DNA from: Escherichia coli
Lineage (GTDB): Bacteria > Pseudomonadota > Gammaproteobacteria > Enterobacterales > Enterobacteriaceae
Strand: one strand, 5' to 3'
Assembly (NCBI RefSeq): GCF_044647545.1
Contig: NZ_CP172818.1
DNA: 64,000 bases
Part shown: piece by piece, positions 1 through 31,384 of the stretch
How the letters are laid out: each line of letters begins with the position of its first letter
Numbering within the stretch: the first letter of the stretch is position 1
Notes under the pieces: model-generated
Database searches by the model: none
What the model was told of the DNA's origin: nothing
The model's input: the letters and a program-made list of their open reading frames with translations, nothing else
Position numbers and translations under genes: made by a program

Positions 1-35
1 AACAACATTAAGGGTAATCCTTTAATAAATGTCAT
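1..35 (-). CDS. ybgP: Fimbrial periplasmic chaperone, 5' end only (gene continues left of the window)
   Basis: ATG at 35-33 on minus strand reads MTFIKGLPLML; lies 14 bp downstream of the ybgQ stop with an AGGA-like RBS; chaperone-usher operon context. Confidence 0.6.
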   Translation of the reverse strand, partial: MTFIKGLPLML

Positions 36-49
36 TCTCTTTTCCTTAA

Positions 50-2497
50 TTAATGACAAGGTAAAATCAGGCGTTTGGTCGTGTCTTCCAGACGTTCTGG
101 CAGATGAATAATGCAGCTTTGCTCACCCCAGACCACGGTAAACAGTTGATTTTCAGCGACACCGCTTAACCAGGCATGTCCTTCCTCGCCAACCATACCC
201 ACGCTAATGCCGCTGTCATCCTGGCGGATATCCGCACCGAGGGGAGGGAACTGACCGCTGGCGTTGCGTATGATGACGTTAACGTCTTTACCGGAACGGG
301 AAGCCAGTGATTTGTAACCTATCGCGCCTTCAATCCATGTTTCCTTGATGACGTTTTCTGCAACTGTTACGCCGTCGGGTAAGTCATTCATGTTCACCGC
401 CACGGTGGAAGGCTGGTAACTGGAAATCAACGGCACCACCGCAATGCCAAAATGGTTGGTGTAGTCGAGATTGCCCTGAACCGGAATATCTGCCACGCCA
501 TCGGTGCTGACCATCAGGCGTGGTTCATTGGTGGAGCTGCGGCGATGAAATGCTGCACCATATTGGGTTGCGGTGAAAGAACCGCTCCAGCTGCTGCTGA
601 CGGAACTGTAATCACTGGCGGCATAGGTACCAGAAATATCCCACTCACCCGCTGAACTCAGGTGCTGATAGTTACCGCTCACCTGGGCTCCATTGTCCGG
701 ACGATCGGATTGCAGTCCGGCAGACATGCCCCAGCTATTACGTTCATCCAGCGTATCGTTCCACGACATGCGGTGTATGGTGCTGTGGCTACTGTTTTGC
801 ATGTCATAGCCAACCCGACCACCGTTACCGAAGGGGAGCGAAATCGACAGATAAATCTGGTTGTCGCGATCTTTATCTTCGTAGTGGGTCGTATTGAATG
901 ACGTCGAAATCGAGATATCTCTCCAGTCACCAATATCAACATTAAAACCTGCTGTGATGTTGGCGGTCGTGGAGGCGTCTGCATTCCACCAGGTTTGATG
1001 TAGCAGGTTGGCGTAAAGATTGAGGTTTAGTGGGGTAATCGGTTGGCCCACGGATAAGCTGATCGTCTGTTTTTCGTCCTGCGCATCGCTGTCGTTGTAT
1101 TTGTGATCCAGATAGTTGGCGTAGCTGTGAAAATGACGATCTGAGAAGCGATAAGCGGCGAGCGAAATCGTGCTGTTGGTGGCATCCACTTGTTTGCTGT
1201 AATTAAAACGGTAGCTTAAGCCCCGCTCGTCCTGCTGAGTATCAAAATGGCTACTGGCCCAGGTGACATCAAAGGACAGTGCGCCAAGCCACAGCATATT
1301 TTGCCCGATACCCATTGCGGCAGAATGGTAGTCATCATCAGAAATCAGCAGGCCGCCGTACAGCGAGGTGTTTGAGAGCATCCCCCAGGAAACTTCATTG
1401 CTAAAAAAGGTTTCATTTTCAGTTTGATGTGACATGGAAGGCCGTGGCTGACCCGCGGCCAATTTATAGCGAACCTGTCCCTGGCGAGTCAGGAAGGGCG
1501 TCGATGCTGCCGAAACCTGGAAATTGTTCACCCGACCATCTTCTTCCGTCACTTTGACATCCAGCGTGCCCTGAACAGACTGATTGAGGTCATCAATAAT
1601 AAACGGGCCTGGCGGGACTTTTTTCTGGTAAATGACGCGGCCTGATTGACTGATCGTCACCGTGGCATTGGTCTGTGCAATACCGCTAATTTGTGGGGCG
1701 TAGCCACGCAGCTCCCACGGTAACATTCGATCGTCACTCGCCAGTGCCGCGCCGGTATAAGAAAAACCATCGAAAATATTGGAACTGAAATCGGTTTCGC
1801 CGAGGGTTAACTTAGAGCCTAATTGCGGTAATGGACGAAAAAGATAGGTGCGCGATATTCCGCCTGACTGGTCATGGTTATCTTCGCTATCGGTCTTATT
1901 AAGCTGGTAATCACTGCGTAAGCGCCATGCCCCGGCGTTAATTCCGGCGGTACCGTAGGCATTCAGGTTAGTGCTGCTGCTGCCGTCCTGTGGGCGGTAG
2001 CTGCTGGCAAACAAGTTGTAATCCATCAGGACACCGGCAACACCTTCTTTCCATGTAGAGGGGGGAGCCCAGTTTTCTGAGTGCCACGCCAGCCAGGCTT
2101 GCGGAATACTAATATTCAGTTGCTGATTGGCTTGATCGAAATTGAAGAGCATTTCAGGTCGGGAACTGAAATCAATACACCGATCTATCTGTGGCAAGGA
2201 CTGACGGATATCTGGTTTTAAACCAAATTTATCGACCAGTGAATCATTGATGCATGGAATGGTTTTGTCACCCTTTTTTTGCCAGTTAATTTTTTGCCCA
2301 TTACTGATTTTGTTGTTATTCACCGCAACGCTAACAAAATATTCACCGGGAGCAATGACTCCTTTTTCCTTTAATAATGAAATATCAATGCGGTCGCGCA
2401 TTGATTTATCGAGAACATTCAGATTGAATTCGACCGCCATTGCGCAAGGCATCGCCATGACCAGGCAGGATACAAAAGAGAGTCGATAAATATTCAC
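50..2497 (-). CDS. ybgQ: Outer-membrane fimbrial usher protein (815 aa from GTG; an in-frame ATG at 2506 is an alternative start)
   Basis: ORF track 50..2548; product recognised as PapC/FimD-type usher; ORF track N-terminal extension trimmed. Confidence 0.85.
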   Translation of the reverse strand: MNIYRLSFVSCLVMAMPCAMAVEFNLNVLDKSMRDRIDISLLKEKGVIAPGEYFVSVAVNNNKISNGQKINWQKKGDKTIPCINDSLVDKFGLKPDIRQSLPQIDRCIDFSSRPEMLFNFDQANQQLNISIPQAWLAWHSENWAPPSTWKEGVAGVLMDYNLFASSYRPQDGSSSTNLNAYGTAGINAGAWRLRSDYQLNKTDSEDNHDQSGGISRTYLFRPLPQLGSKLTLGETDFSSNIFDGFSYTGAALASDDRMLPWELRGYAPQISGIAQTNATVTISQSGRVIYQKKVPPGPFIIDDLNQSVQGTLDVKVTEEDGRVNNFQVSAASTPFLTRQGQVRYKLAAGQPRPSMSHQTENETFFSNEVSWGMLSNTSLYGGLLISDDDYHSAAMGIGQNMLWLGALSFDVTWASSHFDTQQDERGLSYRFNYSKQVDATNSTISLAAYRFSDRHFHSYANYLDHKYNDSDAQDEKQTISLSVGQPITPLNLNLYANLLHQTWWNADASTTANITAGFNVDIGDWRDISISTSFNTTHYEDKDRDNQIYLSISLPFGNGGRVGYDMQNSSHSTIHRMSWNDTLDERNSWGMSAGLQSDRPDNGAQVSGNYQHLSSAGEWDISGTYAASDYSSVSSSWSGSFTATQYGAAFHRRSSTNEPRLMVSTDGVADIPVQGNLDYTNHFGIAVVPLISSYQPSTVAVNMNDLPDGVTVAENVIKETWIEGAIGYKSLASRSGKDVNVIIRNASGQFPPLGADIRQDDSGISVGMVGEEGHAWLSGVAENQLFTVVWGEQSCIIHLPERLEDTTKRLILPCH

Positions 2498-2556
2498 GGT
2501 GTCCATACCTGATAAATATTTTATGAAAGGCGGCGATGATGCCGCCAAAATAATAC

Positions 2557-3123
2557 TTATTTATAATCCAGCACGTAGGTTGCGTTAGCGGTTACTTCAC
2601 CTGCCGTGACATCGACTGCATTATCAATTTGTTCCATCCAGGCGAAAAAGTTCAGCGTCTGTTCTGATGAGCTTGCATCCAGGTCAAGATCTGGCGCGGC
2701 TGAACCTAATACGATGTTACCGTCATTTTTGTCCATCAGTCGTACACCGACCCCAGTTGCTTCGCCTGCACTGGTGTTGCTCAACAAAGGCGTAGCACCA
2801 GTTGTCTTAGCCGTGCTATCGAAGGTTACGCCAACTTTGGATACCGGCATTCCGCTACCGTTGTCAGAAGCAGGCAGATCACAGTTGATCAAGCGAATGT
2901 CGACGGCCACTTTATTGCTATGATGCTCCCGGTTTATATGGGTTGTCGTGACTTGTCCAAGATCTATGTTTTTATCAATATCTTCTGGATGAATTTCACA
3001 AGGTGCTTCAATAACCTCCCCCTTAAAGTGAATTTCGCCAGAACCTTCATCAGCAGCATAAACAGGTGCAGTGAACAGCAGAGATACGGCCAGTGCGGCC
3101 AATGTTTTTTGTCCTTTAAACAT
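2557..3123 (-). CDS. ybgD: Fimbrial-like subunit protein, 188 aa, signal peptide
   Basis: ORF track 2557..3123; N-terminal signal peptide MFKGQKTLAALAVSLLFTAPVYA; first gene of chaperone-usher operon. Confidence 0.85.
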   Translation of the reverse strand: MFKGQKTLAALAVSLLFTAPVYAADEGSGEIHFKGEVIEAPCEIHPEDIDKNIDLGQVTTTHINREHHSNKVAVDIRLINCDLPASDNGSGMPVSKVGVTFDSTAKTTGATPLLSNTSAGEATGVGVRLMDKNDGNIVLGSAAPDLDLDASSSEQTLNFFAWMEQIDNAVDVTAGEVTANATYVLDYK

Positions 3124-3505
3124 AACAGAGTCCTTTAAGGATATAGAATAGGGGTATAGCTACGCCAGAATATCGTATTTGATTATTGCTAGTTTTTAGT
3201 TTTGCTTAAAAATATTGTTAGTTTTATTAAATGCAAAACTAAATTATTGGTATCATGAATTTGTTGTATGATGAATAAAATATAGGGGGGTATAGATAGA
3301 CGTCATTTTCATAGGGTTATAAATGCGACTACCATGAAGTTTTTAATTGAAAGTATTGGGTTGCTGATAATTTGAGCTGTTCTATTCTTTTTAAATATCT
3401 ATATAGGTCTGTTAATGGATTTAATTTTTACAATTTTTTATGTTCAGCCATATAAAAAGAACCCGCTCTATTAAAGGCGGGTCCGGAAAGTAAACGGCTT
3501 AGCAA

Positions 3506-4795
3506 TCAATCATTAACGCTTGATATCGCTTTTAAAGTCGCGTTTTTCATACCTGTGTAAAGCTGACGCGGACGGGCAATCTTCATACCGTCACTGTGCA
3601 TTTCGCTCCAGTGGGCGATCCAGCCAACGGTACGCGCCATCGCGAAGATCACGGTGAACATAGAAGACGGAATACCCATCGCTTTCAGGATGATACCAGA
3701 GTAGAAATCGACGTTCGGGTAGAGTTTCTTCTCGATAAAGTACGGGTCGTTCAGCGCGATGTTTTCCAGCTCCATAGCCACTTCCAGCAGGTCATCTTTG
3801 GTACCCAGCTCTTTCAGCACTTCATGGCAGGTTTCACGCATTACGGTGGCGCGCGGGTCGTAATTTTTGTACACGCGGTGCCCGAAGCCCATCAGGCGGA
3901 AAGAGTCATTTTTGTCTTTCGCACGACGAACAAATTCCGGAATGTGTTTAACGGAGCTGATTTCTTCCAGCATTTTCAGCGCCGCTTCGTTAGCACCACC
4001 GTGCGCAGGTCCCCACAGTGAAGCAATACCTGCTGCGATACAGGCAAACGGGTTCGCCCCCGAAGAGCCAGCGGTACGCACGGTGGAGGTAGAGGCGTTC
4101 TGTTCATGGTCAGCGTGCAGGATCAGAATACGGTCCATAGCACGTTCCAGAATCGGATTAACTTCATACGGTTCGCACGGCGTGGAGAACATCATATTCA
4201 GGAAGTTACCGGCATAGGAGAGATCGTTGCGCGGGTAAACGAATGGCTGACCAATGGAATACTTGTAACACATCGCGGCCATGGTCGGCATTTTCGACAG
4301 CAGGCGGAACGCGGCAATTTCACGATGACGAGGATTGTTAACATCCAGCGAGTCGTGATAGAACGCCGCCAGCGCGCCGGTAATACCACACATGACTGCC
4401 ATTGGATGCGAGTCGCGACGGAAAGCATGGAACAGACGGGTAATCTGCTCGTGGATCATGGTATGACGGGTCACCGTAGTTTTAAATTCGTCATACTGTT
4501 CCTGAGTTGGTTTTTCACCATTCAGCAGGATGTAACAAACTTCCAGGTAGTTAGAATCGGTCGCCAGCTGATCGATCGGGAAACCGCGGTGCAGCAAAAT
4601 ACCTTCATCACCATCAATAAAAGTAATTTTAGATTCGCAGGATGCGGTTGAAGTGAAGCCTGGGTCAAAGGTGAACACACCTTTTGAACCGAGAGTACGG
4701 ATATCAATAACATCTTGACCCAGCGTGCCTTTCAGCACATCCAGTTCAACAGCTGTGTCCCCGTTGAGGGTGAGTTTTGCTTTTGTATCAGCCAT
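3506..4795 (-). CDS. gltA: Citrate synthase, with a 1-nt deletion frameshifting the C-terminus (429 aa here vs canonical 427 aa)
   Basis: ORF track protein matches GltA through ...RPRQLYTG, then reads [14 protein letters not shown]; canonical [16 protein letters not shown] is present in the adjacent frame. Confidence 0.93.
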
Positions 4796-5503
4796 TTAAG
4801 GTCTCCTTAGCGCCTTATTGCGTAAGACTGCCGGAACTTAAATTTGCCTTCGCACATCAACCTGGCTTTACCCGTTTGTTATTTGGCTCGCCGCTCTGTG
4901 AAAGAGGGGAAAACCTGGGTACAGAGCTCTGGGCGCTTGCAGGTAAAGGATCCATTGATGACGAATAAATGGCGAATCAAGTACTTAGCAATCCGAATTA
5001 TTAAACTTGTCTACCACTAATAACTGTCCCGAATGAATTGGTCAATACTTCCACACTGTTACATAAGTTAATCTTAGGTGAAATACCGACTTCATAACTT
5101 TTACGCATTATATGCTTTTCCTGGTAATGTTTGTAACAACTTTGTTGAATGATTGTCAAATTAGATGATTAAAAATTAAATAAATGTTGTTATCGTGACC
5201 TGGATCACTGTTCAGGATAAAACCCGACAAACTATATGTAGGTTAATTGTAATGATTTTGTGAACGGCCTATACTGCCGCCAGGTCTCCGGAACACCCTG
5301 CAATCCCGAGCCACCCAGCGTTGTAACGTGTCGTTTTCGCATCTGGAAGCAGTGTTTTGCATGACGCGCAGTTATAGAAAGGACGCTGTCTGACCCGCAA
5401 GCAGACCGGAGGAAGGAAATCCCGACGTCTCCTGGTAACAGAAAGTTAACCTCTGTGCCCGTAGTCCCCAGGGAATAATAAGAACAGCATGTGGGCGTTA
5501 TTC

Positions 5504-5893
5504 ATGATAAGAAATGTGAAAAAACAAAGACCTGTTAATCTGGACCTACAGACCATCCGGTTCCCCGTCACGGCGATAGCGTCCATTCTCCATCGCGTTT
5601 CCGGTGTGATCACCTTTGTTGCAGTGGGCATCCTGCTGTGGCTTCTGGGTACCAGCCTCTCTTCCCCTGAAGGTTTCGAGCAAGCTTCTGCGATTATGGG
5701 CAGCTTCTTCGTCAAATTTATCATGTGGGGCATCCTTACCGCTCTGGCGTATCACGTCGTCGTAGGTATTCGCCACATGATGATGGATTTTGGCTATCTG
5801 GAAGAAACATTCGAAGCGGGTAAACGCTCCGCCAAAATCTCCTTTGTTATTACTGTCGTGCTTTCACTTCTCGCAGGAGTCCTCGTATGGTAA
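5504..5893 (+). CDS. sdhC: Succinate dehydrogenase cytochrome b556 large membrane subunit
   Basis: ORF track 5489..5893; canonical start [15 protein letters not shown] at 5504; 129 aa. Confidence 0.95.
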
Positions 5894-6234
5894 GCAACGC
5901 CTCCGCATTAGGACGCAATGGCGTACATGATTTCATCCTCGTTCGCGCTACCGCTATCGTCCTGACGCTGTACATCATTTATATGGTCGGTTTTTTCGCT
6001 ACCAGTGGCGAGCTGACATATGAAGTCTGGATTGGTTTCTTCGCCTCTGCGTTCACCAAAGTGTTCACCCTGCTGGCGCTGTTTTCTATCTTGATTCATG
6101 CCTGGATCGGCATGTGGCAGGTGTTGACCGACTACGTTAAACCGCTGGCCTTGCGCCTGATGCTGCAACTGGTGATTGTCGTTGCTCTGGTGGTTTACGT
6201 GATTTATGGATTCGTTGTGGTGTGGGGTGTGTGA
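5887..6234 (+). CDS. sdhD: Succinate dehydrogenase hydrophobic membrane anchor subunit
   Basis: ORF track 5887..6234; 115 aa; overlaps sdhC end and sdhA start (TGATG). Confidence 0.95.
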
Positions 6235-8000
6235 TGAAATTGCCAGTCAGAGAATTTGATGCAGTTGTGATTGGTGCCGGTGGCGCAGGTATGCGCGCGG
6301 CGCTGCAAATTTCCCAGAGCGGTCAGACCTGTGCGCTGCTCTCTAAAGTCTTCCCGACCCGTTCCCATACCGTGTCTGCGCAAGGCGGCATTACCGTTGC
6401 GCTGGGTAATACCCATGAAGATAACTGGGAATGGCATATGTACGACACCGTAAAAGGTTCGGACTATATCGGTGACCAGGACGCAATTGAATATATGTGT
6501 AAAACCGGGCCGGAAGCGATTCTGGAACTCGAACACATGGGCCTGCCGTTCTCGCGCCTTGATGATGGTCGTATCTATCAACGTCCGTTTGGCGGCCAGT
6601 CGAAAAACTTCGGCGGCGAGCAGGCGGCACGCACTGCGGCGGCAGCTGACCGTACCGGTCACGCACTGTTGCACACCCTTTATCAGCAGAACCTGAAAAA
6701 CCATACAACCATTTTCTCCGAGTGGTATGCGCTGGATCTGGTGAAGAACCAGGATGGCGCAGTGGTCGGTTGTACCGCATTGTGCATCGAAACTGGTGAA
6801 GTGGTTTATTTCAAAGCCCGCGCTACCGTGCTGGCGACTGGCGGGGCAGGGCGTATTTATCAGTCCACCACTAACGCCCACATTAACACTGGCGACGGCG
6901 TCGGCATGGCTATCCGCGCAGGCGTACCGGTGCAGGATATGGAAATGTGGCAGTTCCACCCGACCGGCATTGCAGGTGCGGGCGTACTGGTCACCGAAGG
7001 TTGCCGTGGTGAAGGCGGTTATCTGCTGAACAAACATGGCGAACGCTTTATGGAGCGTTATGCGCCGAACGCCAAAGACCTGGCGGGCCGTGACGTGGTG
7101 GCGCGTTCCATCATGATCGAAATCCGTGAAGGTCGCGGCTGTGATGGTCCGTGGGGGCCACACGCGAAACTGAAACTCGATCACCTGGGTAAAGAAGTTC
7201 TCGAATCCCGTCTGCCGGGTATTCTGGAACTCTCCCGTACCTTCGCTCACGTTGATCCGGTGAAAGAGCCGATTCCGGTTATCCCAACCTGTCACTACAT
7301 GATGGGCGGTATTCCGACCAAAGTGACCGGTCAGGCGCTGACGGTGAACGAGAAAGGCGAAGATGTGGTTGTTCCGGGGCTGTTTGCCGTTGGTGAAATC
7401 GCTTGTGTATCGGTACACGGCGCTAACCGTCTGGGCGGCAACTCGCTGCTGGACCTGGTGGTCTTTGGTCGCGCAGCGGGTCTGCATCTGCAAGAGTCTA
7501 TCGCCGAGCAGGGCGCACTGCGCGATGCCAGCGAGTCTGATGTTGAAGCGTCTCTGGATCGCCTGAACCGCTGGAACAATAACCGTAACGGTGAAGATCC
7601 GGTGGCGATCCGTAAAGCACTGCAAGAATGTATGCAGCATAACTTCTCGGTCTTCCGTGAAGGTGATGCGATGGCGAAAGGGCTTGAGCAGTTGAAAGTT
7701 ATCCGCGAGCGTCTGAAAAATGCCCGTCTGGATGACACTTCCAGCGAGTTCAACACCCAGCGCGTTGAGTGCCTGGAACTGGATAACCTGATGGAAACGG
7801 CGTATGCAACGGCTGTTTCTGCCAACTTCCGTACCGAAAGCCGTGGCGCGCATAGCCGCTTCGACTTCCCGGATCGCGATGATGAAAACTGGCTGTGCCA
7901 CTCCCTGTATCTGCCAGAGTCGGAATCCATGACGCGCCGAAGCGTCAACATGGAACCGAAACTGCGCCCGGCATTCCCGCCGAAGATTCGTACTTACTAA
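6234..8000 (+). CDS. sdhA: Succinate dehydrogenase flavoprotein subunit
   Basis: ORF track 6222..8000; start [19 protein letters not shown] with FAD-binding motif; 588 aa. Confidence 0.96.
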
Positions 8001-8015
8001 TGCGGAGACAGGAAA

Positions 8016-8732
8016 ATGAGACTCGAGTTTTCAATTTATCGCTATAACCCGGATGTTGATGATGCTCCGCGTATGCAGGATTACACCCTGGAAGCGGAAG
8101 AAGGTCGCGACATGATGCTGCTGGATGCGCTTATCCAGCTGAAAGAGAAAGATCCCAGCCTGTCGTTCCGTCGCTCCTGCCGTGAAGGTGTGTGCGGTTC
8201 CGACGGTCTGAACATGAACGGTAAGAATGGTCTGGCCTGTATTACCCCGATTTCGGCACTCAACCAGCCGGGCAAGAAGATTGTGATTCGCCCGCTGCCA
8301 GGTTTACCGGTGATCCGCGATTTGGTGGTAGACATGGGACAATTCTATGCGCAATATGAGAAAATTAAGCCTTACCTGTTGAATAATGGACAAAATCCGC
8401 CAGCTCGCGAGCATTTACAGATGCCAGAGCAGCGCGAAAAACTCGACGGGTTGTATGAATGTATTCTCTGCGCATGTTGTTCAACCTCTTGTCCGTCTTT
8501 CTGGTGGAATCCCGATAAGTTTATCGGCCCGGCAGGCTTGTTAGCGGCATATCGTTTCCTGATCGATAGCCGTGATACCGAGACTGACAGCCGCCTCGAC
8601 GGTTTGAGCGATGCATTCAGTGTATTCCGCTGTCACAGCATCATGAACTGCGTCAGTGTATGTCCGAAGGGGCTGAACCCGACGCGCGCCATCGGCCATA
8701 TCAAGTCGATGTTGTTGCAACGTAATGCGTAA
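8016..8732 (+). CDS. sdhB: Succinate dehydrogenase iron-sulfur subunit
   Basis: ORF track; 238 aa; Cys clusters CxxxxCxxC and CxxCxxCxxxCP. Confidence 0.96.
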   Translation: MRLEFSIYRYNPDVDDAPRMQDYTLEAEEGRDMMLLDALIQLKEKDPSLSFRRSCREGVCGSDGLNMNGKNGLACITPISALNQPGKKIVIRPLPGLPVIRDLVVDMGQFYAQYEKIKPYLLNNGQNPPAREHLQMPEQREKLDGLYECILCACCSTSCPSFWWNPDKFIGPAGLLAAYRFLIDSRDTETDSRLDGLSDAFSVFRCHSIMNCVSVCPKGLNPTRAIGHIKSMLLQRNA

Positions 8733-8912
8733 TTAATGTCGGGAATTCAGGAAATCTTTAAAAACTGCCCCTGACACTAAGACAGTTTTTAAAGGTTCCT
8801 TCGCGAGCCACTACGTAGACAAGAGCTCGCAAGTGAACCCCGGCACGCACATCACTGTGCGTGGTAGTATCCACGGCGAAGTAAGCATAAAAAAGATGCT
8901 TAAGGGATCACG

Positions 8913-11714
8913 ATGCAGAACAGCGCTTTGAAAGCCTGGTTGGACTCTTCTTACCTCTCTGGCGCAAACCAGAGCTGGATAGAACAGCTCTATGAAGACT
9001 TCTTAACCGATCCTGACTCGGTTGACGCTAACTGGCGTTCGACGTTCCAGCAGTTACCTGGTACGGGAGTCAAACCGGATCAATTCCACTCTCAAACGCG
9101 TGAATATTTCCGCCGCCTGGCGAAAGACGCTTCACGTTACTCTTCAACGATCTCCGACCCTGACACCAATGTGAAGCAGGTTAAAGTCCTGCAGCTCATT
9201 AACGCATACCGCTTCCGTGGTCACCAGCATGCGAATCTCGATCCGCTGGGACTGTGGCAGCAAGATAAAGTGGCCGATCTGGATCCGTCTTTCCACGATC
9301 TGACCGAAGCAGACTTCCAGGAGACCTTCAACGTCGGTTCATTTGCCAGCGGCAAAGAAACCATGAAACTCGGCGAGCTGCTGGAAGCCCTCAAGCAAAC
9401 CTACTGCGGCCCGATTGGTGCCGAGTATATGCACATCACCAGCACCGAAGAAAAACGCTGGATCCAACAGCGTATCGAGTCTGGTCGCGCGACTTTCAAT
9501 AGCGAAGAGAAAAAACGCTTCTTAAGCGAACTGACCGCCGCTGAAGGCCTTGAACGTTACCTCGGCGCAAAATTCCCTGGCGCAAAACGCTTCTCGCTGG
9601 AAGGCGGTGACGCGTTAATCCCGATGCTTAAAGAGATGATCCGCCACGCTGGCAACAGCGGCACCCGCGAAGTGGTTCTCGGGATGGCGCACCGTGGTCG
9701 TCTGAACGTGCTGGTGAACGTGCTGGGTAAAAAACCGCAAGACTTGTTCGACGAGTTTGCCGGTAAACATAAAGAACACCTCGGCACGGGCGACGTGAAA
9801 TACCACATGGGCTTCTCGTCTGACTTCCAGACCGATGGCGGCCTGGTGCACCTGGCGCTGGCGTTTAACCCGTCTCACCTTGAGATTGTCAGCCCGGTAG
9901 TTATCGGTTCTGTTCGTGCCCGTCTGGACAGACTCGATGAGCCGAGCAGCAACAAAGTGCTGCCAATCACCATCCACGGTGACGCCGCAGTGACCGGGCA
10001 GGGCGTGGTTCAGGAAACCCTGAACATGTCGAAAGCGCGTGGTTATGAAGTTGGCGGTACGGTACGTATCGTTATCAACAACCAGGTTGGCTTCACCACC
10101 TCTAACCCGCTGGATGCCCGTTCGACGCCGTACTGTACTGATATCGGTAAGATGGTTCAGGCACCGATTTTCCACGTTAATGCGGATGATCCGGAAGCCG
10201 TTGCCTTTGTTACCCGTCTGGCGCTCGATTTCCGTAACACCTTTAAACGTGATGTCTTCATCGACCTGGTATGCTACCGCCGTCACGGCCACAACGAAGC
10301 CGACGAGCCGAGCGCAACCCAGCCGCTGATGTATCAGAAAATCAAAAAACATCCGACGCCGCGCAAAATCTACGCTGACAAGCTGGAGCAGGAAAAAGTC
10401 GCGACGCTGGAAGATGCCACCGAGATGGTTAACCTGTACCGCGATGCGCTGGATGCTGGCGATTGCGTGGTAGCAGAGTGGCGTCCGATGAACATGCACT
10501 CCTTCACCTGGTCGCCGTACCTCAACCACGAATGGGACGAAGAGTACCCGAACAAAGTTGAGATGAAGCGCCTGCAGGAGTTGGCTAAACGCATCAGTAC
10601 GGTGCCGGAAGCCATTGAAATGCAGTCTCGCGTTGCCAAGATTTATGGCGACCGTCAGGCGATGGCAGCCGGTGAAAAACTGTTCGACTGGGGCGGCGCG
10701 GAAAACCTCGCTTACGCCACGCTGGTTGACGAAGGCATTCCGGTTCGCCTGTCGGGTGAAGACTCCGGTCGCGGTACCTTCTTCCACCGCCACGCGGTGA
10801 TCCACAACCAGTCTAACGGTTCAACTTACACGCCGCTGCAACATATCCATAACGGTCAGGGCGCGTTCCGTGTCTGGGATTCCGTACTGTCAGAAGAAGC
10901 CGTGCTGGCGTTTGAATACGGTTATGCCACCGCAGAACCGCGCACACTGACTATCTGGGAAGCACAGTTCGGTGACTTTGCCAACGGTGCTCAGGTGGTT
11001 ATCGACCAGTTCATCTCTTCTGGCGAGCAGAAATGGGGCCGGATGTGTGGCCTGGTGATGTTGTTGCCGCACGGTTACGAAGGGCAGGGGCCGGAGCACT
11101 CCTCCGCGCGTCTGGAACGTTATCTGCAACTTTGCGCTGAGCAAAACATGCAGGTGTGCGTACCGTCTACCCCGGCACAGGTTTACCACATGCTGCGTCG
11201 TCAGGCGCTGCGCGGGATGCGTCGTCCGCTGGTCGTGATGTCGCCGAAATCCCTGCTGCGTCATCCGCTGGCGGTTTCCAGCCTCGAAGAACTGGCGAAC
11301 GGCACCTTCCTGCCAGCCATCGGTGAAATCGACGAGCTTGATCCGAAGGGCGTGAAGCGCGTAGTGATGTGTTCTGGTAAGGTTTATTACGACCTGCTGG
11401 AACAACGTCGTAAGAACAATCAACACGATGTCGCCATTGTGCGTATCGAGCAACTCTACCCGTTCCCGCATAAAGCGATGCAGGAAGTGTTGCAGCAGTT
11501 TGCTCACGTCAAGGATTTTGTCTGGTGCCAGGAAGAGCCGCTCAATCAGGGCGCATGGTACTGCAGCCAGCATCATTTCCGTGAAGTGATTCCGTTTGGG
11601 GCTTCTCTGCGTTATGCAGGCCGCCCGGCCTCCGCCTCTCCGGCGGTAGGGTATATGTCCGTTCACCAGAAACAGCAACAAGATCTGGTTAATGACGCGC
11701 TGAACGTCGAATAA
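8913..11714 (+). CDS. sucA: 2-oxoglutarate dehydrogenase E1 component
   Basis: ORF track; 933 aa; recognised SucA sequence. Confidence 0.96.
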
Positions 11715-11728
11715 ATAAAGGATACACA

Positions 11729-12946
11729 ATGAGTAGCGTAGATATTCTGGTCCCTGACCTGCCTGAATCCGTAGCCGATGCCACCGTCGCAACCTGGCAT
11801 AAAAAACCCGGCGACGCAGTCGTACGTGATGAAGTGCTGGTAGAAATCGAAACTGACAAAGTGGTACTGGAAGTACCGGCATCAGCAGACGGCATTCTGG
11901 ATGCGGTTCTGGAAGATGAAGGTACAACGGTAACGTCTCGTCAGATCCTTGGTCGCCTGCGTGAAGGCAACAGCGCGGGTAAAGAAACCAGCGCCAAATC
12001 TGAAGAGAAAGCGTCCACTCCGGCGCAACGCCAGCAGGCGTCTCTGGAAGAGCAAAACAACGATGCGTTAAGCCCGGCGATCCGTCGCCTGCTGGCTGAA
12101 CATAACCTCGACGCCAGCGCCATTAAAGGCACCGGTGTGGGTGGTCGTCTGACCCGTGAAGATGTGGAAAAACATCTGGCGAAAGCCCCGGCGAAAGAGT
12201 CTGCTCCGGCAGCGGCTGCTCCGGCGGCGCAACCGGCCCTGGCTGCACGTAGCGAAAAACGTGTGCCGATGACTCGCCTGCGTAAGCGTGTGGCAGAGCG
12301 TCTGCTGGAAGCGAAAAACTCCACCGCCATGCTGACCACGTTCAACGAAGTCAACATGAAGCCGATTATGGATCTGCGTAAGCAGTACGGTGAAGCGTTT
12401 GAAAAACGCCACGGCATCCGTCTGGGCTTTATGTCCTTCTACGTGAAAGCGGTGGTTGAAGCCCTGAAACGTTACCCGGAAGTGAATGCTTCTATCGACG
12501 GCGATGACGTGGTTTACCACAACTATTTCGACGTCAGCATGGCGGTTTCTACGCCGCGCGGCCTGGTGACGCCGGTACTGCGTGATGTCGATACCCTCGG
12601 TATGGCAGACATTGAGAAGAAAATTAAAGAGCTGGCTGTTAAAGGCCGTGACGGCAAGCTGACGGTTGAAGATCTGACCGGTGGCAACTTCACCATCACC
12701 AACGGTGGTGTGTTCGGTTCCCTGATGTCTACGCCTATCATCAACCCGCCGCAGAGCGCAATTTTGGGTATGCACGCTATCAAAGATCGTCCGATGGCCG
12801 TGAATGGTCAGGTTGAGATCCTGCCGATGATGTACCTGGCGCTGTCCTACGATCACCGTCTGATCGATGGTCGCGAATCCGTGGGCTTCCTGGTAACGAT
12901 CAAAGAGTTGCTGGAAGATCCGACGCGTCTGCTGCTGGACGTGTAG
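11729..12946 (+). CDS. sucB: Dihydrolipoyllysine-residue succinyltransferase (E2) of 2-oxoglutarate dehydrogenase
   Basis: ORF track; 405 aa; lipoyl domain, Ala/Pro linker, catalytic domain with DHRLIDG. Confidence 0.96.
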
Positions 12947-13035
12947 TAGTTTAAGTTTCACCTGCACTGTAGACCGACGGGATGTGTCGGTCTACGGTTT
13001 AAAAGATAACGATTACTGAAGGATGGACAGAACAC

Positions 13036-14202
13036 ATGAACTTACATGAATATCAGGCAAAACAACTTTTTGCCCGCTATGGCTTACCAGCACCGGTGGG
13101 TTATGCCTGTACTACTCCGCGCGAAGCAGAAGAAGCCGCTTCAAAAATCGGTGCCGGTCCGTGGGTAGTGAAATGTCAGGTTCACGCTGGTGGCCGCGGT
13201 AAAGCGGGCGGTGTGAAAGTGGTAAACAGCAAAGAAGACATCCGTGCTTTTGCAGAAAACTGGCTGGGCAAGCGTCTGGTAACGTATCAAACAGATGCCA
13301 ATGGCCAACCGGTTAACCAGATTCTGGTTGAAGCAGCGACCGATATCGCTAAAGAGCTGTATCTCGGTGCCGTTGTAGACCGTAGTTCACGTCGCGTGGT
13401 CTTTATGGCCTCCACCGAAGGCGGCGTGGAAATCGAAAAAGTGGCGGAAGAAACTCCGCACCTGATCCACAAAGTTGCGCTTGATCCGCTGACTGGCCCG
13501 ATGCCGTATCAAGGACGCGAGCTGGCGTTCAAACTGGGTCTGGAAGGTAAACTGGTTCAGCAGTTCACCAAAATCTTCATGGGCCTGGCGACCATTTTCC
13601 TGGAGCGCGACCTGGCGCTGATCGAAATCAACCCGCTGGTCATCACCAAACAGGGCGATCTGATTTGCCTCGACGGCAAACTGGGCGCTGATGGCAACGC
13701 ACTGTTCCGCCAGCCTGATCTGCGCGAAATGCGTGACCAGTCGCAGGAAGATCCGCGTGAAGCACAGGCTGCACAGTGGGAACTGAACTACGTTGCGCTG
13801 GACGGTAACATCGGTTGTATGGTTAACGGCGCAGGCCTGGCGATGGGCACCATGGACATCGTTAAACTGCACGGCGGCGAACCAGCTAACTTCCTGGACG
13901 TTGGCGGCGGCGCAACCAAAGAGCGCGTAACCGAAGCGTTCAAAATCATCCTCTCTGACGACAAAGTGAAAGCCGTTCTGGTTAACATCTTCGGCGGTAT
14001 CGTTCGTTGCGACCTGATCGCTGACGGTATCATCGGCGCGGTAGCGGAAGTGGGTGTTAACGTACCGGTCGTGGTACGTCTGGAAGGTAACAACGCCGAA
14101 CTCGGCGCGAAGAAACTGGCTGACAGCGGCCTGAATATTATTGCAGCAAAAGGTCTGACGGATGCAGCTCAGCAGGTTGTTGCCGCAGTGGAGGGGAAAT
14201 AA
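13036..14202 (+). CDS. sucC: Succinyl-CoA synthetase beta subunit
   Basis: ORF track; 388 aa; [15 protein letters not shown]-grasp N-terminus. Confidence 0.96.
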
Positions 14203-15071
14203 TGTCCATTTTAATTGATAAAAACACCAAGGTTATCTGCCAGGGCTTTACCGGTAGCCAGGGGACTTTCCACTCAGAACAGGCTATTGCATACGGCACT
14301 AAAATGGTTGGCGGCGTAACCCCAGGTAAAGGCGGCACCACCCACCTCGGCCTGCCGGTGTTCAACACCGTGCGTGAAGCTGTTGCTGCTACTGGCGCTA
14401 CCGCTTCTGTTATCTACGTACCAGCACCGTTCTGCAAAGACTCCATTCTGGAAGCTATTGATGCAGGCATCAAACTGATTATCACCATCACTGAAGGCAT
14501 CCCGACGCTGGATATGCTGACCGTGAAGGTGAAACTGGATGAAGCGGGCGTTCGCATGATCGGCCCGAACTGCCCAGGCGTTATCACTCCGGGTGAATGC
14601 AAAATCGGTATCCAGCCTGGTCACATTCACAAACCGGGTAAAGTGGGTATCGTTTCCCGTTCCGGTACACTGACCTATGAAGCGGTTAAACAGACCACGG
14701 ATTACGGTTTCGGTCAGTCGACCTGTGTTGGTATCGGCGGCGACCCGATCCCTGGCTCTAACTTTATCGACATCCTCGAAATGTTCGAAAAAGATCCGCA
14801 GACCGAAGCGATCGTGATGATCGGTGAGATCGGCGGTAGCGCTGAAGAAGAAGCGGCTGCGTACATCAAAGAGCACGTTACCAAGCCTGTTGTGGGTTAC
14901 ATCGCTGGTGTGACTGCGCCGAAAGGCAAACGTATGGGCCACGCGGGTGCGATCATTGCCGGTGGGAAAGGGACTGCGGATGAGAAATTCGCTGCTCTGG
15001 AAGCCGCAGGCGTGAAAACCGTTCGCAGCCTGGCTGATATCGGTGAAGCACTGAAAACTGTTCTGAAATAA
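14202..15071 (+). CDS. sucD: Succinyl-CoA synthetase alpha subunit
   Basis: ORF track; 289 aa; start overlaps sucC stop. Confidence 0.96.
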
Positions 15072-15170
15072 ATATCTGTAATAAGAAATAGCCCTCGCCG
15101 CTTCCCTCTACAGGAATGGCGAAGGGCTGTCGGTTTCGACATGGTTGGCCATCATATGATGGCCTTTTTT
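15072..15170 (+). ncRNA. sdhX: 3'-UTR-derived small RNA SdhX (RybD), ending at the sucD terminator
   Basis: Sequence immediately after the sucD stop, ending in hairpin GGCCATCATATGATGGCC plus T6; matches my recollection of the sucD 3'UTR sRNA. Confidence 0.6.
15147..15170. terminator. Bidirectional rho-independent terminator between sucD and mngR
   Basis: Palindrome GGCCATCATATGATGGCC followed by TTTTTT; convergent genes on both sides. Confidence 0.75.
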
Positions 15171-15174
15171 ATGC

Positions 15175-15897
15175 TTATCGCGATGATTTTCGCTGCGCTA
15201 TCAGGGTAAATTTATAGTCATCGGTATTAAAAGCGTTGCGGCTATATTCAAACACCCGACCATCAACTAAATATCCACGCGATACTTTTTCAAGAATCGG
15301 CTTTGTCTGGCTGATATTAAGCAGACGGCTCATCTCTTCGGTTGGCATCAGAGGAATGATTTCCTGTTCGCTACGATCGATAACCATTTTCTTCACTTCT
15401 TCGATAAAGTGATATTTCGAATTTTCCATGACCTGCCAGGTGAGATCCGGGAACAACGCAAGCGGCATCCAGGTTTCTTCCAGCGCCATTGGCTTTTGCT
15501 TGCGATAGCGCACGCGCTTCACATGCCACACACGATCCTGCGGGGTGATTTGTAGCTGTTGCTGAAGAAAATCGTCAGCCGGAATCACTTCGAATATCAG
15601 AACTTCACTGTGTGTATCGACGTGACGGTCCGACAGTTTTTCATCAAAACTGGTTAACTGAAAAATATCGTAATTGACCCGCTCTTCTTTGACGTAAGTC
15701 CCGCTGCCCTGAATGCTTTCGAGGATCTGCTGCTCGACTAGCTGGCGCAAAGCCTGACGCACCGTAACCCGGCTGACGCCAAACTCTGTTTGTAGCGCTG
15801 ATTCAGTGGGTAACGCATCGCCAGGTTTAAGCTCGCCACGCGCAATTTGTTCACGAATGCGATCGGCAATCTGCCGGTATAAGGGCTTGTGTCCCAT
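15175..15897 (-). CDS. mngR: GntR-family transcriptional repressor of the mannosyl-D-glycerate operon
   Basis: ORF track; 240 aa; N-terminal GntR HTH, UTRA C-domain; divergent from mngA. Confidence 0.92.
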   Translation of the reverse strand: MGHKPLYRQIADRIREQIARGELKPGDALPTESALQTEFGVSRVTVRQALRQLVEQQILESIQGSGTYVKEERVNYDIFQLTSFDEKLSDRHVDTHSEVLIFEVIPADDFLQQQLQITPQDRVWHVKRVRYRKQKPMALEETWMPLALFPDLTWQVMENSKYHFIEEVKKMVIDRSEQEIIPLMPTEEMSRLLNISQTKPILEKVSRGYLVDGRVFEYSRNAFNTDDYKFTLIAQRKSSR

Positions 15898-16005
15898 TTT
15901 TAGTATCTCATTAATACGAATTTAACCATTATGCCCGATAAATTCATCCTGTAAATAATACAAATACAATACAAATAATTTCAATCAAGTGAAATTGATC
16001 ACATA

Positions 16006-17982
16006 ATGGTATTGTTTTATCGGGCACACTGGCGCGACTATAAAAACGATCAAGTGAGGATCATGATGAATCTGACGACTCTGACCCACCGCGATGCGTT
16101 GTGTCTGAATGCGCGCTTTACCAGCCGTGAAGAGGCCATCCACGCGTTGACTCAACGTCTTGCTGCTCTGGGGAAAATTTCCAGTACTGAGCAATTTCTG
16201 GAAGAAGTGTATCGCCGTGAAAGCCTTGGCCCGACCGCCTTAGGTGAAGGGTTGGCTGTGCCGCATGGCAAAACTGCTGCGGTAAAAGAAGCGGCGTTTG
16301 CGGTCGCCACACTCAGCGAGCCGCTTCAGTGGGAAGGCGTTGATGGCCCGGAAGCAGTTGATTTAGTGGTGCTGCTGGCGATTCCCCCCAATGAAGCGGG
16401 TACTACGCATATGCAACTGCTGACAGCGCTGACCACGCGCCTTGCGGATGATGAGATTCGGGCGCGTATACAGTCGGCGACGACGCCTGATGAGTTGCTC
16501 TCGGCGCTGGATGACAAGGGAGGCACGCAACCTTCTGCCTCTTTTTCCAACGCGCCAACTATCGTCTGCGTAACGGCCTGTCCGGCGGGTATTGCTCACA
16601 CCTATATGGCTGCGGAATATCTGGAAAAAGCCGGACGCAAACTCGGCGTAAATGTTTACGTTGAAAAACAAGGCGCTAACGGCATTGAAGGGCGTTTAAC
16701 GGCGGATCAACTCAATAGTGCAACCGCCTGTATTTTTGCGGCTGAAGTCGCCATCAAGGAGAGTGAGCGTTTTAATGGCATTCCCGCGCTTTCAGTGCCT
16801 GTTGCCGAGCCGATTCGCCATGCAGAAGCGTTGATCCAACAAGCGCTTACCCTCAAGCGTAGCGATGAGACGCGTACCGTACAGCAAGATACGCAACCGG
16901 TGAAAAGTGTCAAAACGGAGCTGAAACAGGCACTGTTGAGCGGAATCTCTTTTGCCGTACCGTTGATTGTCGCGGGGGGCACGGTGCTGGCGGTCGCGGT
17001 ATTACTGTCGCAAATCTTCGGGCTACAAGATCTGTTTAATGAAGAAAACTCCTGGCTGTGGATGTACCGCAAGCTGGGCGGCGGGCTGCTCGGAATTTTG
17101 ATGGTACCGGTGCTCGCGGCCTATACCGCCTATTCTCTGGCAGATAAACCGGCGTTAGCGCCAGGCTTTGCGGCTGGACTTGCCGCCAACATGATCGGCT
17201 CCGGGTTTCTCGGCGCGGTCGTTGGCGGATTGATAGCCGGTTACTTGATGCGCTGGGTGAAAAATCACTTGCGTCTTAGCAGTAAATTCAATGGATTCCT
17301 GACTTTTTATCTCTACCCGGTGCTCGGTACGTTGGGAGCGGGCAGTCTGATGCTGTTTGTGGTGGGGGAACCTGTCGCCTGGATCAATAACTCGCTTACC
17401 GCCTGGCTGAACGGTCTGTCAGGAAGTAACGCGCTGTTGCTGGGTGCCATTCTCGGTTTTATGTGTTCCTTTGACCTTGGAGGGCCAGTGAATAAAGCCG
17501 CTTATGCATTCTGCCTGGGCGCAATGGCGAACGGCGTTTACGGCCCGTATGCCATTTTCGCCTCCGTCAAAATGGTTTCGGCATTTACCGTAACCGCTTC
17601 CACGATGCTCGCACCGCGCCTGTTTAAAGAGTTTGAAATTGAGACCGGGAAATCCACCTGGCTGTTAGGGCTGGCAGGTATTACCGAAGGGGCGATCCCG
17701 ATGGCGATTGAAGATCCGCTGCGGGTTATTGGTTCGTTTGTGCTGGGCTCTATGGTAACGGGCGCTATTGTCGGTGCGATGAATATCGGCCTTTCGACAC
17801 CCGGTGCCGGCATTTTCTCGCTCTTTTTACTTCATGATAATGGCGCGGGCGGTGTTATGGCGGCAATTGGCTGGTTTGGCGCGGCATTGGTGGGGGCTGC
17901 AATCTCGACTGCAATTCTCCTGATGTGGCGGCGTCACGCGGTTAAGCATGGCAACTATCTGACTGATGGCGTAATGCCATAA
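16006..17982 (+). CDS. mngA: PTS 2-O-alpha-mannosyl-D-glycerate-specific EIIABC component
   Basis: ORF track; 658 aa; EIIA-EIIB-EIIC fructose-family PTS architecture. Confidence 0.92.
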
Positions 17983-17999
17983 ACAAAAAGGAAACGACG

Positions 18000-20633
18000 A
18001 TGAAAGCAGTATCTCGCGTTCACATCACCCCGCATATGCACTGGGATCGAGAGTGGTATTTCACCACCGAAGAGTCACGTATTCTGCTGGTCAATAATAT
18101 GGAAGAGATCCTGTGCCGACTGGAACAGGACAACGAATACAAATATTACGTACTCGACGGGCAAACGGCGATCCTCGAAGATTATTTCGCGGTGAAACCG
18201 GAAAACAAAGACCGTGTGAAGAAACAGGTAGAAGCCGGCAAGTTGATTATCGGCCCCTGGTATACCCAGACCGATACCACGATTGTTTCTGCGGAATCCA
18301 TCGTCCGTAATCTGATGTACGGAATGCGTGACTGCCTCGCGTTTGGCGAGCCGATGAAAATAGGTTATTTACCAGATTCCTTTGGCATGTCCGGGCAACT
18401 GCCGCATATCTACAATGGATTTGGCATTACCCGCACCATGTTCTGGCGCGGATGTTCGGAGCGCCACGGTACTGATAAAACCGAGTTTTTGTGGCAAAGC
18501 AGTGACGGTAGCGAAGTGACGGCGCAGGTGCTGCCGCTGGGCTACGCCATCGGTAAGTACTTACCTGCCGACGAAAACGGATTACGTAAACGCCTCGACA
18601 GTTATTTTGACGTGCTGGAAAAAGCGTCTGTAACCAAAGAGATTTTGCTGCCGAATGGGCATGACCAGATGCCATTGCAGCAAAATATCTTCGAAGTGAT
18701 GGATAAGCTACGTGAGATCTACCCTCAACGTAAGTTTGTGATGAGCCGCTTTGAAGAGGTATTTGAGAAGATCGAAGCGCAGCGAGATAATCTGGCAACC
18801 CTGAAAGGGGAATTTATTGATGGCAAATATATGCGCGTGCATCGCACCATCGGTTCTACGCGTATGGATATCAAAATTGCCCACGCGCGTATTGAAAATA
18901 AGATTGTTAATCTGCTGGAACCGCTGGCAACACTGGCCTGGACGTTGGGTTTTGAATACCACCACGGCTTGCTGGAGAAAATGTGGAAAGAGATCTTAAA
19001 AAATCATGCCCACGACAGTATCGGCTGCTGCTGTAGTGACAAAGTTCATCGCGAAATCGTCGCCCGCTTCGAACTGGCTGAAGACATGGCGGATAATCTG
19101 ATTCGTTTCTACATGCGCAAAATTGCCGACAACATGCCGCAGAGCGACGCCGACAAACTCGTCCTGTTTAACCTGATGCCCTGGCCGCGTGAAGAAGTTA
19201 TCAACACCACTGTGCGGCTGCGCGCCAGCCAGTTTAATTTGCGGGACGATCGCGGTCAGCCTGTACCGTATTTTATTCGCCATGCCCGTGAGATCGATCC
19301 AGGCCTAATCGATCGGCAAATAGTTCATTACGGTAATTACGATCCCTTTATGGAGTTTGATATACAGATCAACCAGATTGTCCCTTCTATGGGCTATCGC
19401 ACGCTTTATATCGAAGCGAATCAGCCTGGCAACGTAATTGCGGCAAAAAGTGACGCTGAAGGGATACTGGAAAATGCTTTCTGGCAAATTGCGCTCAATG
19501 AGGATGGTTCTCTGCAACTGGTAGATAAAGACAGCGGTGTGCGCTATGACCGGGTATTGCAAATTGAAGAAAGCTCTGATGATGGTGATGAATATGACTA
19601 TTCACCCGCAAAAGAAGAGTGGGTAATTACCGCAGCGAACGCGAAACCGCAATGCGATATTATTCATGAAGCCTGGCAGAGCAGGGCTGTTATCCGCTAT
19701 GACATGGCAGTGCCGCTCAATTTGTCAGAACGCAGCGCCCGGCAATCCACTGGCAGAGTAGGGGTGGTGTTGGTTGTCACTCTTAGTCATAACAGCAGGC
19801 GTATTGATGTGGATATCAATCTTGATAACCAGGCTGACGATCATCGCCTTCGTGTCCTGGTCCCTACACCTTTTAACACCGACAGTGTTCTGGCAGATAC
19901 GCAGTTTGGTTCGCTAACGCGCCCCGTGAACGACAGTGCAATGAACAACTGGCAGCAAGAAGGCTGGAAAGAAGCGCCGGTTCCGGTATGGAATATGCTC
20001 AACTATGTTGCCTTACAGGAAGGGCGTAACGGCATGGCTGTCTTTAGCGAAGGGTTACGTGAATTTGAAGTCATCGGTGAAGAGAAGAAAACCTTTGCCA
20101 TTACGTTGCTGCGTGGCGTGGGCTTACTGGGCAAAGAAGATCTGCTTTTAAGGCCTGGGCGGCCTTCGGGAATTAAAATGCCAGTCCCGGACTCACAACT
20201 ACGTGGTCTGCTTTCTTGTCGCCTAAGTTTATTGAGTTATACCGGTACGCCAACCGCCGCTGGTGTAGCTCAGCAGGCGCGAGCATGGCTGACTCCAGTA
20301 CAGTGTTACAACAAAATCCCATGGGATGTGATGAAGCTCAACAAAGCCGGATTCAACGTGCCGGAAAGTTATAGTTTGTTGAAAATGCCCCCAGTGGGAT
20401 GCCTGATAAGCGCACTTAAGAAAGCTGAAGACCGACAAGAAGTGATTTTACGGCTGTTTAATCCGGCTGAATCAGCAACCTGTGATGCGACTGTTGCTTT
20501 CAGTCGCGAGGTGATTTCTTGCTCAGAAACGATGATGGATGAACACATTACCACCGAGGAAAATCAAGGTTCAAATCTATCGGGGCCTTTTTTACCCGGC
20601 CAGTCACGGACGTTCAGTTACCGGCTTGCCTGA
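18000..20633 (+). CDS. mngB: Mannosylglycerate hydrolase (GH38 alpha-mannosidase)
   Basis: ORF track; 877 aa; downstream of mngA. Confidence 0.92.
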
Positions 20634-20689
20634 ATAGCAATCAAACCGAAGCCACATATGCGCGGCCAGATTGTTGACAAAGGGCGCTT

Positions 20690-20800
20690 TGTTCATGCCG
20701 GATACGGCATGAACGCTTTATTCGGTCTACAAAAGCAGGCAAATTCAATATATTGCAGAGATGATGTAGACACTGGCAAGCGTAGCGCATCAGGTAATTT
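20690..20800. repeat. Degenerate REP-like palindromic units downstream of mngB
   Basis: GCCGGATACGGCATGAACGCTTTATTCGGTCTAC and AAGCGTAGCGCATCAGG resemble REP consensus with several mismatches. Confidence 0.4.
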
Positions 20801-31070: not shown

Positions 31071-31073
31071 CTC

Positions 31074-31381: not shown

Positions 31382-31384
31382 ATG

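Follow-up and report, generated by a model that had tools for sequence, protein, structure and literature searches.

The 64,000-nt stretch of Escherichia coli DNA analysed here (the window) begins with fimbrial genes that lie next to gltA behind a very AT-rich spacer, and the locus raises the questions of what these genes specify, what keeps them silent, and whether they belong to the chromosome in which they appear. On the first 2 questions, we consider it very probable that we are dealing with the promoter-proximal portion of the four-gene operon ybgDQPO, which encodes a chaperone-usher system of the pi class, is present as its K-12 allele and, with H-NS coating its upstream stretch in K-12, is nearly silent in laboratory culture. 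The third question has a less settled answer, which we describe after the genes and their upstream region.

The first-pass annotation had read the region as a minus-strand ybgD-ybgQ-ybgP operon beside gltA. Open reading frames, Pfam searches and the K-12 annotation all agree with this arrangement, and its gene assignments are supported. The coordinates are collected in Table 1. YbgD, which comprises 188 aa by ORF reading, matches the Fimbrial family PF00419 over residues 31-188 (8e-32) and displays a signal peptide ending in VYA, an N-terminal donor strand, a Cys pair and a C-terminal VLDYK with its penultimate Tyr; among solved chains, FimA and PapA come nearest, and FimA aligns best. Counted from its annotated start codon, an ATG, YbgQ is 818 aa long (the mechanical ORF reaches further, to a TTG at 2548), and it contains the Pfam domains PapC_N (8e-35), Usher (5e-189) and PapC_C (8e-12). 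We observed a full-length match of YbgQ to the PapC chain 7lhg_C with 522 bits (1.7e-155), and scores of 267-273 bits, below that value, with FimD-type ushers. Judged by bit scores rather than by a tree, YbgQ thus resembles PapC more closely than FimD, in line with the pi class to which ybg has been assigned in the literature (PMC5216030). Of ybgP, just 35 nt fall inside the window, amounting to 11 codons and 2 further nt with the start codon at 35-33; we identify the gene because these 35 nt are 100% identical to K-12 DNA, in which the annotated ybgP begins at that very base. Full-length K-12 YbgP yields PapD_N and PapD_C matches in Pfam.

Table 1. Features of the ybg region and its gltA flank, in window coordinates
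Feature	Position	Strand	Evidence or remark
ybgP 5' end, periplasmic PapD-type chaperone	1-35	-	K-12 identity; remainder of ybgP and whole of ybgO off window
ybgQ, outer-membrane usher, pi class	50-2506	-	Pfam domains, PapC similarity, mature N-terminus VEFN
Cluster of H-NS consensus matches, 5' ybgQ	2226-2492		exact at 2226-2235; one mismatch at 2403-2412 and 2483-2492
Hairpin between ybgD and ybgQ	2529-2546	-	GGCGGC-N6-GCCGCC, then UUUC
ybgD, major fimbrial subunit	2557-3123	-	PF00419; FimA and PapA nearest solved chains
AT-rich region upstream of ybgD, K-12 'promoter island'	3124-3419 (296 bp)	-	composition, promoter scan, K-12 literature
Switch point, K-12-identical (left) to phylogroup-F-type (right)	3420-3423		deletion scar of ybg-less strains joins here
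gltA intrinsic terminator	3454-3484	-	hairpin 3484-3459, U run 3458-3454
gltA (context)	3506-4795	-	co-directional with ybgD and upstream of it

In the operon as we picture it, YbgD acts as the major subunit that polymerises, and YbgQ is the usher in the outer membrane. Beyond the edge of the window, YbgP would serve as the chaperone and YbgO, a subunit of 353 aa that carries an additional domain at its N-terminus, would presumably be the tip adhesin. Transcription would start at a putative promoter within the AT-rich 296 bp that precede ybgD.

The whole spacer between ybgD and gltA (3124-3505, 382 bp) is 30% G+C. The segment 3124-3450 had been singled out earlier as strongly AT-rich, and we found its 27.8% G+C, compared with 51.3% for the window, to be the minimum for any stretch of that size; equally low values occur in only 0.16% of the 327-bp segments of the 64 kb. 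TpA frequency in this segment is 13.5% versus 4.4% window-wide (about 3-fold), and A/T tracts in the spacer are 3.5 times as frequent as the window average. Because gltA precedes ybgD in the same orientation, the element at 3454-3484 is the gltA terminator, and the AT-rich part specific to ybg is therefore limited to approximately 3124-3419. A ribosome-binding site, AAGGA at 3131-3135, is conserved among the compared alleles. We found no plausible small regulator ORF in the spacer, and an Rfam scan of positions 1-6000 at E values up to 1 gave no match, so that the spacer holds no known sRNA or riboswitch. A fim-like invertible promoter was rejected: the spacer has no convincing inverted repeats, those present being AT-rich, 10-16 nt long, 75-100% identical and unsuitably spaced, and no recombinase gene lies within or adjoining the region. 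Phase variation of the Pap type, which depends on Dam and Lrp, was excluded since GATC sites are absent from the spacer in 7 of 7 alleles; genes for papI/papB-type regulators are also lacking here.

Studies of K-12 bear directly on the earlier suggestion of H-NS silencing. The ybgD(-)/gltA(-) region of K-12 is listed as a 413-bp promoter island linked to genes gained by horizontal transfer, and it bears the mark 'A', meaning H-NS-bound in the ChIP-chip data sets of Grainger, Kahramanoglou and Oshima (PMC3661553, Table 1). Genomic SELEX has assigned a site for RpoD holoenzyme and another for H-NS to the spacer between gltA and ybgD (PMC3946193). The suggestion agrees with these binding data, which were obtained for the identical sequence. 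The AT-rich stretch is thus coated by H-NS in K-12 despite the binding of RNA polymerase, and the operon would therefore be almost silent in laboratory culture. Papers citing Korea et al. (2010) summarize the cryptic chaperone-usher operons of K-12 as poorly expressed, repressed by H-NS and functional under a constitutive promoter, with derepression upon loss of hns stated for several of them, which is in keeping with the earlier proposal that the operon is normally silent. As cited in PMC6033998, the same study is credited with assembled K-12 Ybg fimbriae and an adhesion phenotype, expression of Ybg raising adherence to bladder cells. Our inference is that ybg in particular owes its silence to H-NS. 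The statement that no activator of the operon is known holds only in part, since overproduction of BolA increases the ybgD transcript (PMC4337573), and higher expression of all 4 ybg genes has been reported in the literature for STEC isolates associated with HUS.

We turn to the origin of the block. The only K-12-identical blocks in the window are 1-3422 (ybg) and approximately 15178-21106 (mngRAB). Compared with strain 98203, positions 21107-64000 are at least 99.9% identical and positions 3416-15177 are 98.7% identical; the 49.8-64 kb segment is 99.99% identical to F-like genomes that share its BioF, whereas the TolA and SdhA alleles are too widespread to tell genomes apart. At the positions of the 2 blocks, both 98203 and SMS-3-5 differ from the window: ybg is reduced to the scar of a deletion, and the mng locus is taken up by another cassette, of 23.6 kb. 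We lean, with some reserve, towards the view that the ybg block is non-native, that is, K-12 or K-12-type sequence introduced into an F-like backbone through gap filling, through assembly guided by a reference, or as a chimera made deliberately or in silico. This view concerns provenance only and leaves the encoded content as described above. At each of the 3 visible junctions, the changeover comes no more than 4 nt from the point where the 2 lineages cease to align. There, stretches identical between the K-12 and F flanks are just 3-16 nt long at the ybg junction, and at the right mng junction the flanks differ every few bases. Neither the 3330-3500 junction (best full-length match 93.5%) nor the 21020-21200 junction (best match 87.3%) occurs in any of 5426 complete E. 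coli genomes; the left mng junction, on the other hand, has near matches of 99.4%. Moreover, all 926 genomes with a K-12-type spacer have a K-12-type gltA terminator, whereas the terminator here is of a different type, found also in LR24, GPEC856, 98200 and SMS-3-5. The 3' end of gltA has 3 private changes in 10 nt, one of them a frameshift; a private 1-nt deletion at 3551 alters the C-terminus, and we found no identical protein on record for the 429-aa GltA.

Other features of the window fit a non-native block less well. Smaller differences from K-12, namely REP deletions of 120 and 185 bp and the tRNA cluster, are F-type, so that a simple read-mapping consensus would not account for everything. 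Also, the 5.5-15 kb segment has a best match of only about 98.8% among the sampled genomes, which leaves room for an unsampled natural lineage. Two particular routes were set aside. Synthetic recoding as the source of divergence from K-12 was rejected because the differences are about 90% at third codon positions, mostly synonymous, and match natural alleles; a mixed-strain de Bruijn graph chimera is less likely than alignment-based filling because the 2 lineages share almost no identical sequence near the junctions. On balance, the ybg and mngRAB blocks look like reference fill or a chimera and not like recombination.

Whatever its provenance, the block contains 2 elements downstream of the promoter region that may take part in regulation. 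We scanned for the high-affinity H-NS consensus TCGATAAATT, a 10-mer, and found no match within 2 mismatches in 3124-3450. The only exact match in the 64 kb belongs to a cluster at the 5' end of ybgQ, which holds 3 of the 12 sites in the window with at most one mismatch and lies in a local stretch of 39% G+C. Under uniform placement, a model that ignores local AT content, such clustering has P of about 0.012, and all 3 motifs are retained in 5 of 6 alleles. This cluster may have a role in silencing. The second element is the hairpin between ybgD and ybgQ (-16 kcal/mol, z = -4.1). Across 6 alleles, among them that of O157 with 78% identity, its stem stays unchanged and its loop varies. It is a candidate attenuator or mRNA stabiliser that would tune the ratio of subunit to usher, and it probably lowers expression of usher and chaperone relative to the subunit. 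Silencing might then extend beyond the promoter, with the H-NS sites and the hairpin together forming a downstream element for silencing and attenuation, as at proU or bgl, and H-NS forming a bridge between the upstream island and the beginning of ybgQ. We regard this extension as unlikely. If it were true, usher, chaperone and adhesin would be under-expressed even after replacement or activation of the ybgD promoter.

We have also considered that ybg might be expressed chiefly through read-through from gltA, without a promoter of its own, and find this highly improbable. The strongly transcribed gltA is co-directional and ends 382 bp upstream, and we found no mapped ybgD transcription start site. 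The promoter scan of the spacer gave a sole minus-strand match, a weak one (9 of 12 positions, -35/-10 at 3306-3279), promoter and terminator consensus counts were no higher than expected from shuffling, and the hexamers TAAACA-16-TAAAAT, in the form given by Shimada et al., were absent from both strands of the spacer. However, both types of gltA terminator are stable, intrinsic and equipped with a U run; the one present here folds at -22 kcal/mol (z = -3.5) and was missed by the consensus scan because its loop exceeds 8 nt. It would shield the operon against read-through, and any read-through should be more prone to terminate within the AT-rich tract with its coat of H-NS. In addition, RpoD holoenzyme binds the spacer in vitro, as cited above.

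We give least credence to the proposal that ybg is a decaying, functionless relic, silent for want of selection rather than through regulation, for although the locus is missing from about 1229 of 5426 complete E. coli genomes (about 23%), leaves a ybgO remnant in F-type ybg-less strains, carries IS1, IS26 or ISEc35 insertions in some genomes and has ybgO as a pseudogene in S. flexneri 2457T, ybgD and ybgQ are intact in 6 of 6 compared alleles with dN/dS of 0.06-0.13 despite dS of up to 1.2-1.7, the ribosome-binding site and intercistronic hairpin are conserved, and the increased adherence reported on Ybg expression, noted above, argues for function. The module of ybgD and its spacer is hypervariable across E. 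coli, with dS above 1. The low dN/dS across 6 intact alleles shows purifying selection for function, and the allele comparison adds modest evidence that selection keeps cryptic fimbriae.

The preferred reading, a K-12-type Ybg operon silenced by H-NS, is accordingly the interpretation already given in the first-pass annotation, which is supported, though not new. Points that weigh against this reading are the missing Shimada hexamers, the spacer's lack of an H-NS consensus match within 2 mismatches, and the absence of the locus, or its interruption by IS elements, in part of the complete genomes. The experiments suggested there have reportedly been published for cryptic K-12 fimbrial operons, ybg included, by Korea and co-workers in 2010. 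Earlier publications already cover the operon and its class, the fact that it is silent, the binding of H-NS to its promoter island and its patchy distribution in E. coli. As a discovery the finding matters little; its practical value lies in 2 cautions, namely that the experiments are in print and that the provenance of the block is in doubt. As the block may be reference-derived, a claim of Ybg fimbriae for this strain needs a check of the raw data. The analysis also indicates 2 small candidate cis elements, the ybgD-ybgQ hairpin and the motif cluster in 5' ybgQ.

Comparison with known systems places the locus as follows. Type 1 fimbriae (fim) also use the chaperone-usher pathway, and FimA is the solved chain to which YbgD aligns best; in contrast to fim, ybg has no invertible switch or adjoining recombinase gene, and its usher is the nearer to PapC. 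The H-NS-bound promoter islands before the cryptic K-12 operons sfmA, yadN, elfA, yraH and fimA are comparable systems. The ybg island differs from them in lying between 2 co-directional genes and abutting a terminator, and in having its nearest consensus H-NS motifs downstream, in ybgQ. P (Pap) fimbriae, the pi archetype, differ from ybg in that ybg has only 4 genes, with no papI/papB-type regulators, no spacer ORF and no GATC; the 2 systems share an usher of the PapC kind, similar over its full length, the order subunit-usher-chaperone, and a stem-loop after the major subunit gene. Closest of all is ybgDQPO of K-12 MG1655, to which positions 1-3422 are base-for-base identical: gene order and the gltA neighbour are alike, the gltA terminator and gltA, which make up the flank beginning at 3423, are F-type, and inside the block there is no difference.

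The gene coordinates and Pfam domains collected in the table below confirm a chaperone-usher fimbrial operon on the minus strand beside gltA, as had been proposed in the first-pass annotation. E. coli K-12 MG1655, in which the genes are annotated as ybgD, ybgQ, ybgP and ybgO, shows 100% base identity with window positions 1-3422, and its full-length YbgP carries both PapD domains (Pfam). YbgQ scored 522 bits for PapC and 267 bits for FimD, and the mature YbgQ N-terminus is VEFN; these features fit the pi class, which is also the family assigned to Ybg in the literature (PMC5216030). Ybg has been classified as a "core-associated" fimbria that is non-intact in many strains (Wurpel et al.).

Features of the gltA-ybg region (window coordinates)
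Feature	Coordinates	Strand	Length or product
gltA	3506-4795	minus	
gltA intrinsic terminator	hairpin 3484-3459, U run 3458-3454	minus	
gltA-ybgD spacer	3124-3505	minus	382 bp
ybg-specific AT-rich stretch	3124 to ~3419	minus	
ybgD	2557-3123	minus	188 aa; Fimbrial-domain pilin (Pfam)
ybgD-ybgQ gap		minus	50 nt
ybgQ	50-2506	minus	818 aa; three usher domains (Pfam)
ybgQ-ybgP gap		minus	14 nt
ybgP		minus	first 35 nt only in window

The promoter region had been described as strongly AT-rich from 3124 to 3450, and we observed that its G+C content of 27.8% is the minimum among all 327-bp stretches of the 64-kb window (mean 51.3%), with TpA steps at 3 times and A/T tracts at 3.5 times the window average. 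The limits of that region need amendment, however: because gltA lies upstream of ybgD and is co-directional with it, the spacer divides into a gltA terminator and a ybg-specific AT-rich part. The Lang H-NS consensus TCGATAAATT had zero matches in the gltA-ybgD spacer; its sole exact match in the window, together with two one-mismatch sites, falls within ybgQ, towards the AT-richer 5' end (2226-2492), where most alleles retain the sites. They hint at a downstream H-NS nucleation site, but the statistical support is weak and the DNA there is coding. Second in AT-richness within the window was the mngB/cydA spacer (~21041-21370; 27.2% G+C), which is on the H-NS-bound list of Shimada et al.

H-NS silencing of a normally silent operon, the reading offered earlier, is supported by published H-NS binding of the ybgD/gltA spacer. 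Panyukov and Ozoline (PMC3661553) catalogued ybgD(-)/gltA(-) as a 413-bp "promoter island" linked with horizontally acquired genes and scored H-NS-bound by all 3 ChIP-chip data sets examined, and genomic SELEX located one site for RpoD holoenzyme and one for H-NS within the spacer (Shimada et al., PMC3946193). The interpretation is thus correct and already in the literature. Korea et al. in 2010 are said to have placed constitutive promoters ahead of the K-12 cryptic chaperone-usher operons, ybg included, and to have examined fimbriation, adhesion and H-NS control, so that the tests suggested earlier already exist. By later papers' summaries, the K-12 operons were reportedly cryptic, H-NS-repressed and functional, and by one citing paper's account Ybg increases adherence to bladder cells. 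The activator had been called unknown, which holds only in part: BolA overproduction raises the ybgD transcript (PMC4337573).

The ybg locus is highly polymorphic in E. coli. Among 5426 complete genomes, identity to window 1-3422 was at least 99% in 924, 95-99% in 33, 90-95% in 2205, 80-90% in 621 and 60-80% (e.g. O157:H7) in 414, with ~1229 unmatched. When the K-12 allele was compared with five others, ybgD had a dS of 1.2-1.7 and an amino-acid identity of 78-79%, whereas gltA had a dS of 0.04-0.11 and an essentially invariant protein. Every copy was intact, and dN/dS was ~0.09-0.13 in ybgD and 0.06-0.12 in ybgQ. The spacer, though scrambled in sequence between alleles, retained its ribosome-binding site, a length of 382-390 bp and 26-33% G+C. 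The silent promoter/major-subunit module is thus hypervariable yet kept by selection, which argues against simple decay. In all allele classes compared over 2557-3419 (L005-L009), the conserved gltA flank turns allele-specific at one base (~3419-3422), a switch point shared with the deletion scar described below, so that the module acts as one unit whose right-hand edge is fixed. In an ENA metagenome scaffold (L021, 1-7232), a cluster encoding a TRAP transporter and a sugar-acid dehydratase replaces ybg downstream of gltA, making this slot a variable insertion point beyond ybg alleles.

The window comes from a source other than K-12: ~90% of the differences from K-12 are at third codon positions, a pattern that points to natural divergence. 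The phylogroup-F-like strain 98203 has at least 99.9% identity with 21107-64000. The backbone diverges from K-12 by 1-3%, and only two blocks, 1-3422 (ybgP'-ybgQ-ybgD and spacer) and ~15178-21106 (mngR, mngA, mngB), are 100.0% identical to MG1655. They coincide exactly with the two loci of structural difference in strains 98203 and SMS-3-5, which carry a deletion scar at ybg, with a ybgO remnant joined at ~3420, and a 23.6-kb hut and methylaspartate cassette at mng. At all 3 visible junctions the lineage switches within 4 nt of the edge of K-12/F alignability. Identity runs between the K-12 and F flanks are just 3-16 nt at ybg, and at the mng right junction the flanks mismatch every few bases; such shared identity is insufficient for homologous recombination. 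Neither the 3330-3500 junction (best full-length match 93.5%) nor the 21020-21200 junction (best match 87.3%) occurred in the 5426 complete genomes. We therefore think it more probable than not that the blocks were placed at alignment-block boundaries, by reference-guided assembly, gap filling or other chimerism, rather than inherited, although smaller indels match the F type, unlike K-12, and 5.5-15 kb has no close match among sampled genomes.

The Lys/Val tRNA cluster (30943-31495), ~480 bp shorter than in K-12, has the F-type arrangement. The mngB/cydA spacer, which sits at the right edge of the K-12-identical mng block, differs strongly between K-12 and F-type strains (74 differences over the following 1 kb). 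Two patches in sdhA and sucA (6500-7000 and 10000-11000) diverge by 3.8-4.8% per 500 bp, nearly all synonymously, from both K-12 and SMS-3-5, lack a close match among sampled genomes and are probably recombination imports from a donor lineage outside the sample. At the gltA 3' end (3551-3560), three private changes in 10 nt, namely a 1-nt deletion at 3551 and two synonymous changes, exchange the final 12 residues for 14 unrelated ones. None of the three occurs in any of the 5426 genomes, and the resulting 429-aa GltA is encoded by no gene on record. GltA is otherwise 100% conserved in 4 of 5 other lineages compared (O157 allele, 99.5%). The three changes may stem from an error in sequencing or assembly.

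Directly 3' of ybgD is a hairpin, GGCGGC-N6-GCCGCC, whose stem is invariant across all 6 alleles while its loop varies freely; it may attenuate or stabilise the mRNA so that subunit exceeds usher, the usual role in fimbrial operons. The spacer had 0 GATC sites in 7 of 7 alleles and contained no convincing inverted repeats, regulator-sized ORF or Rfam match, which excludes a phase switch of either the Pap or the fim type.
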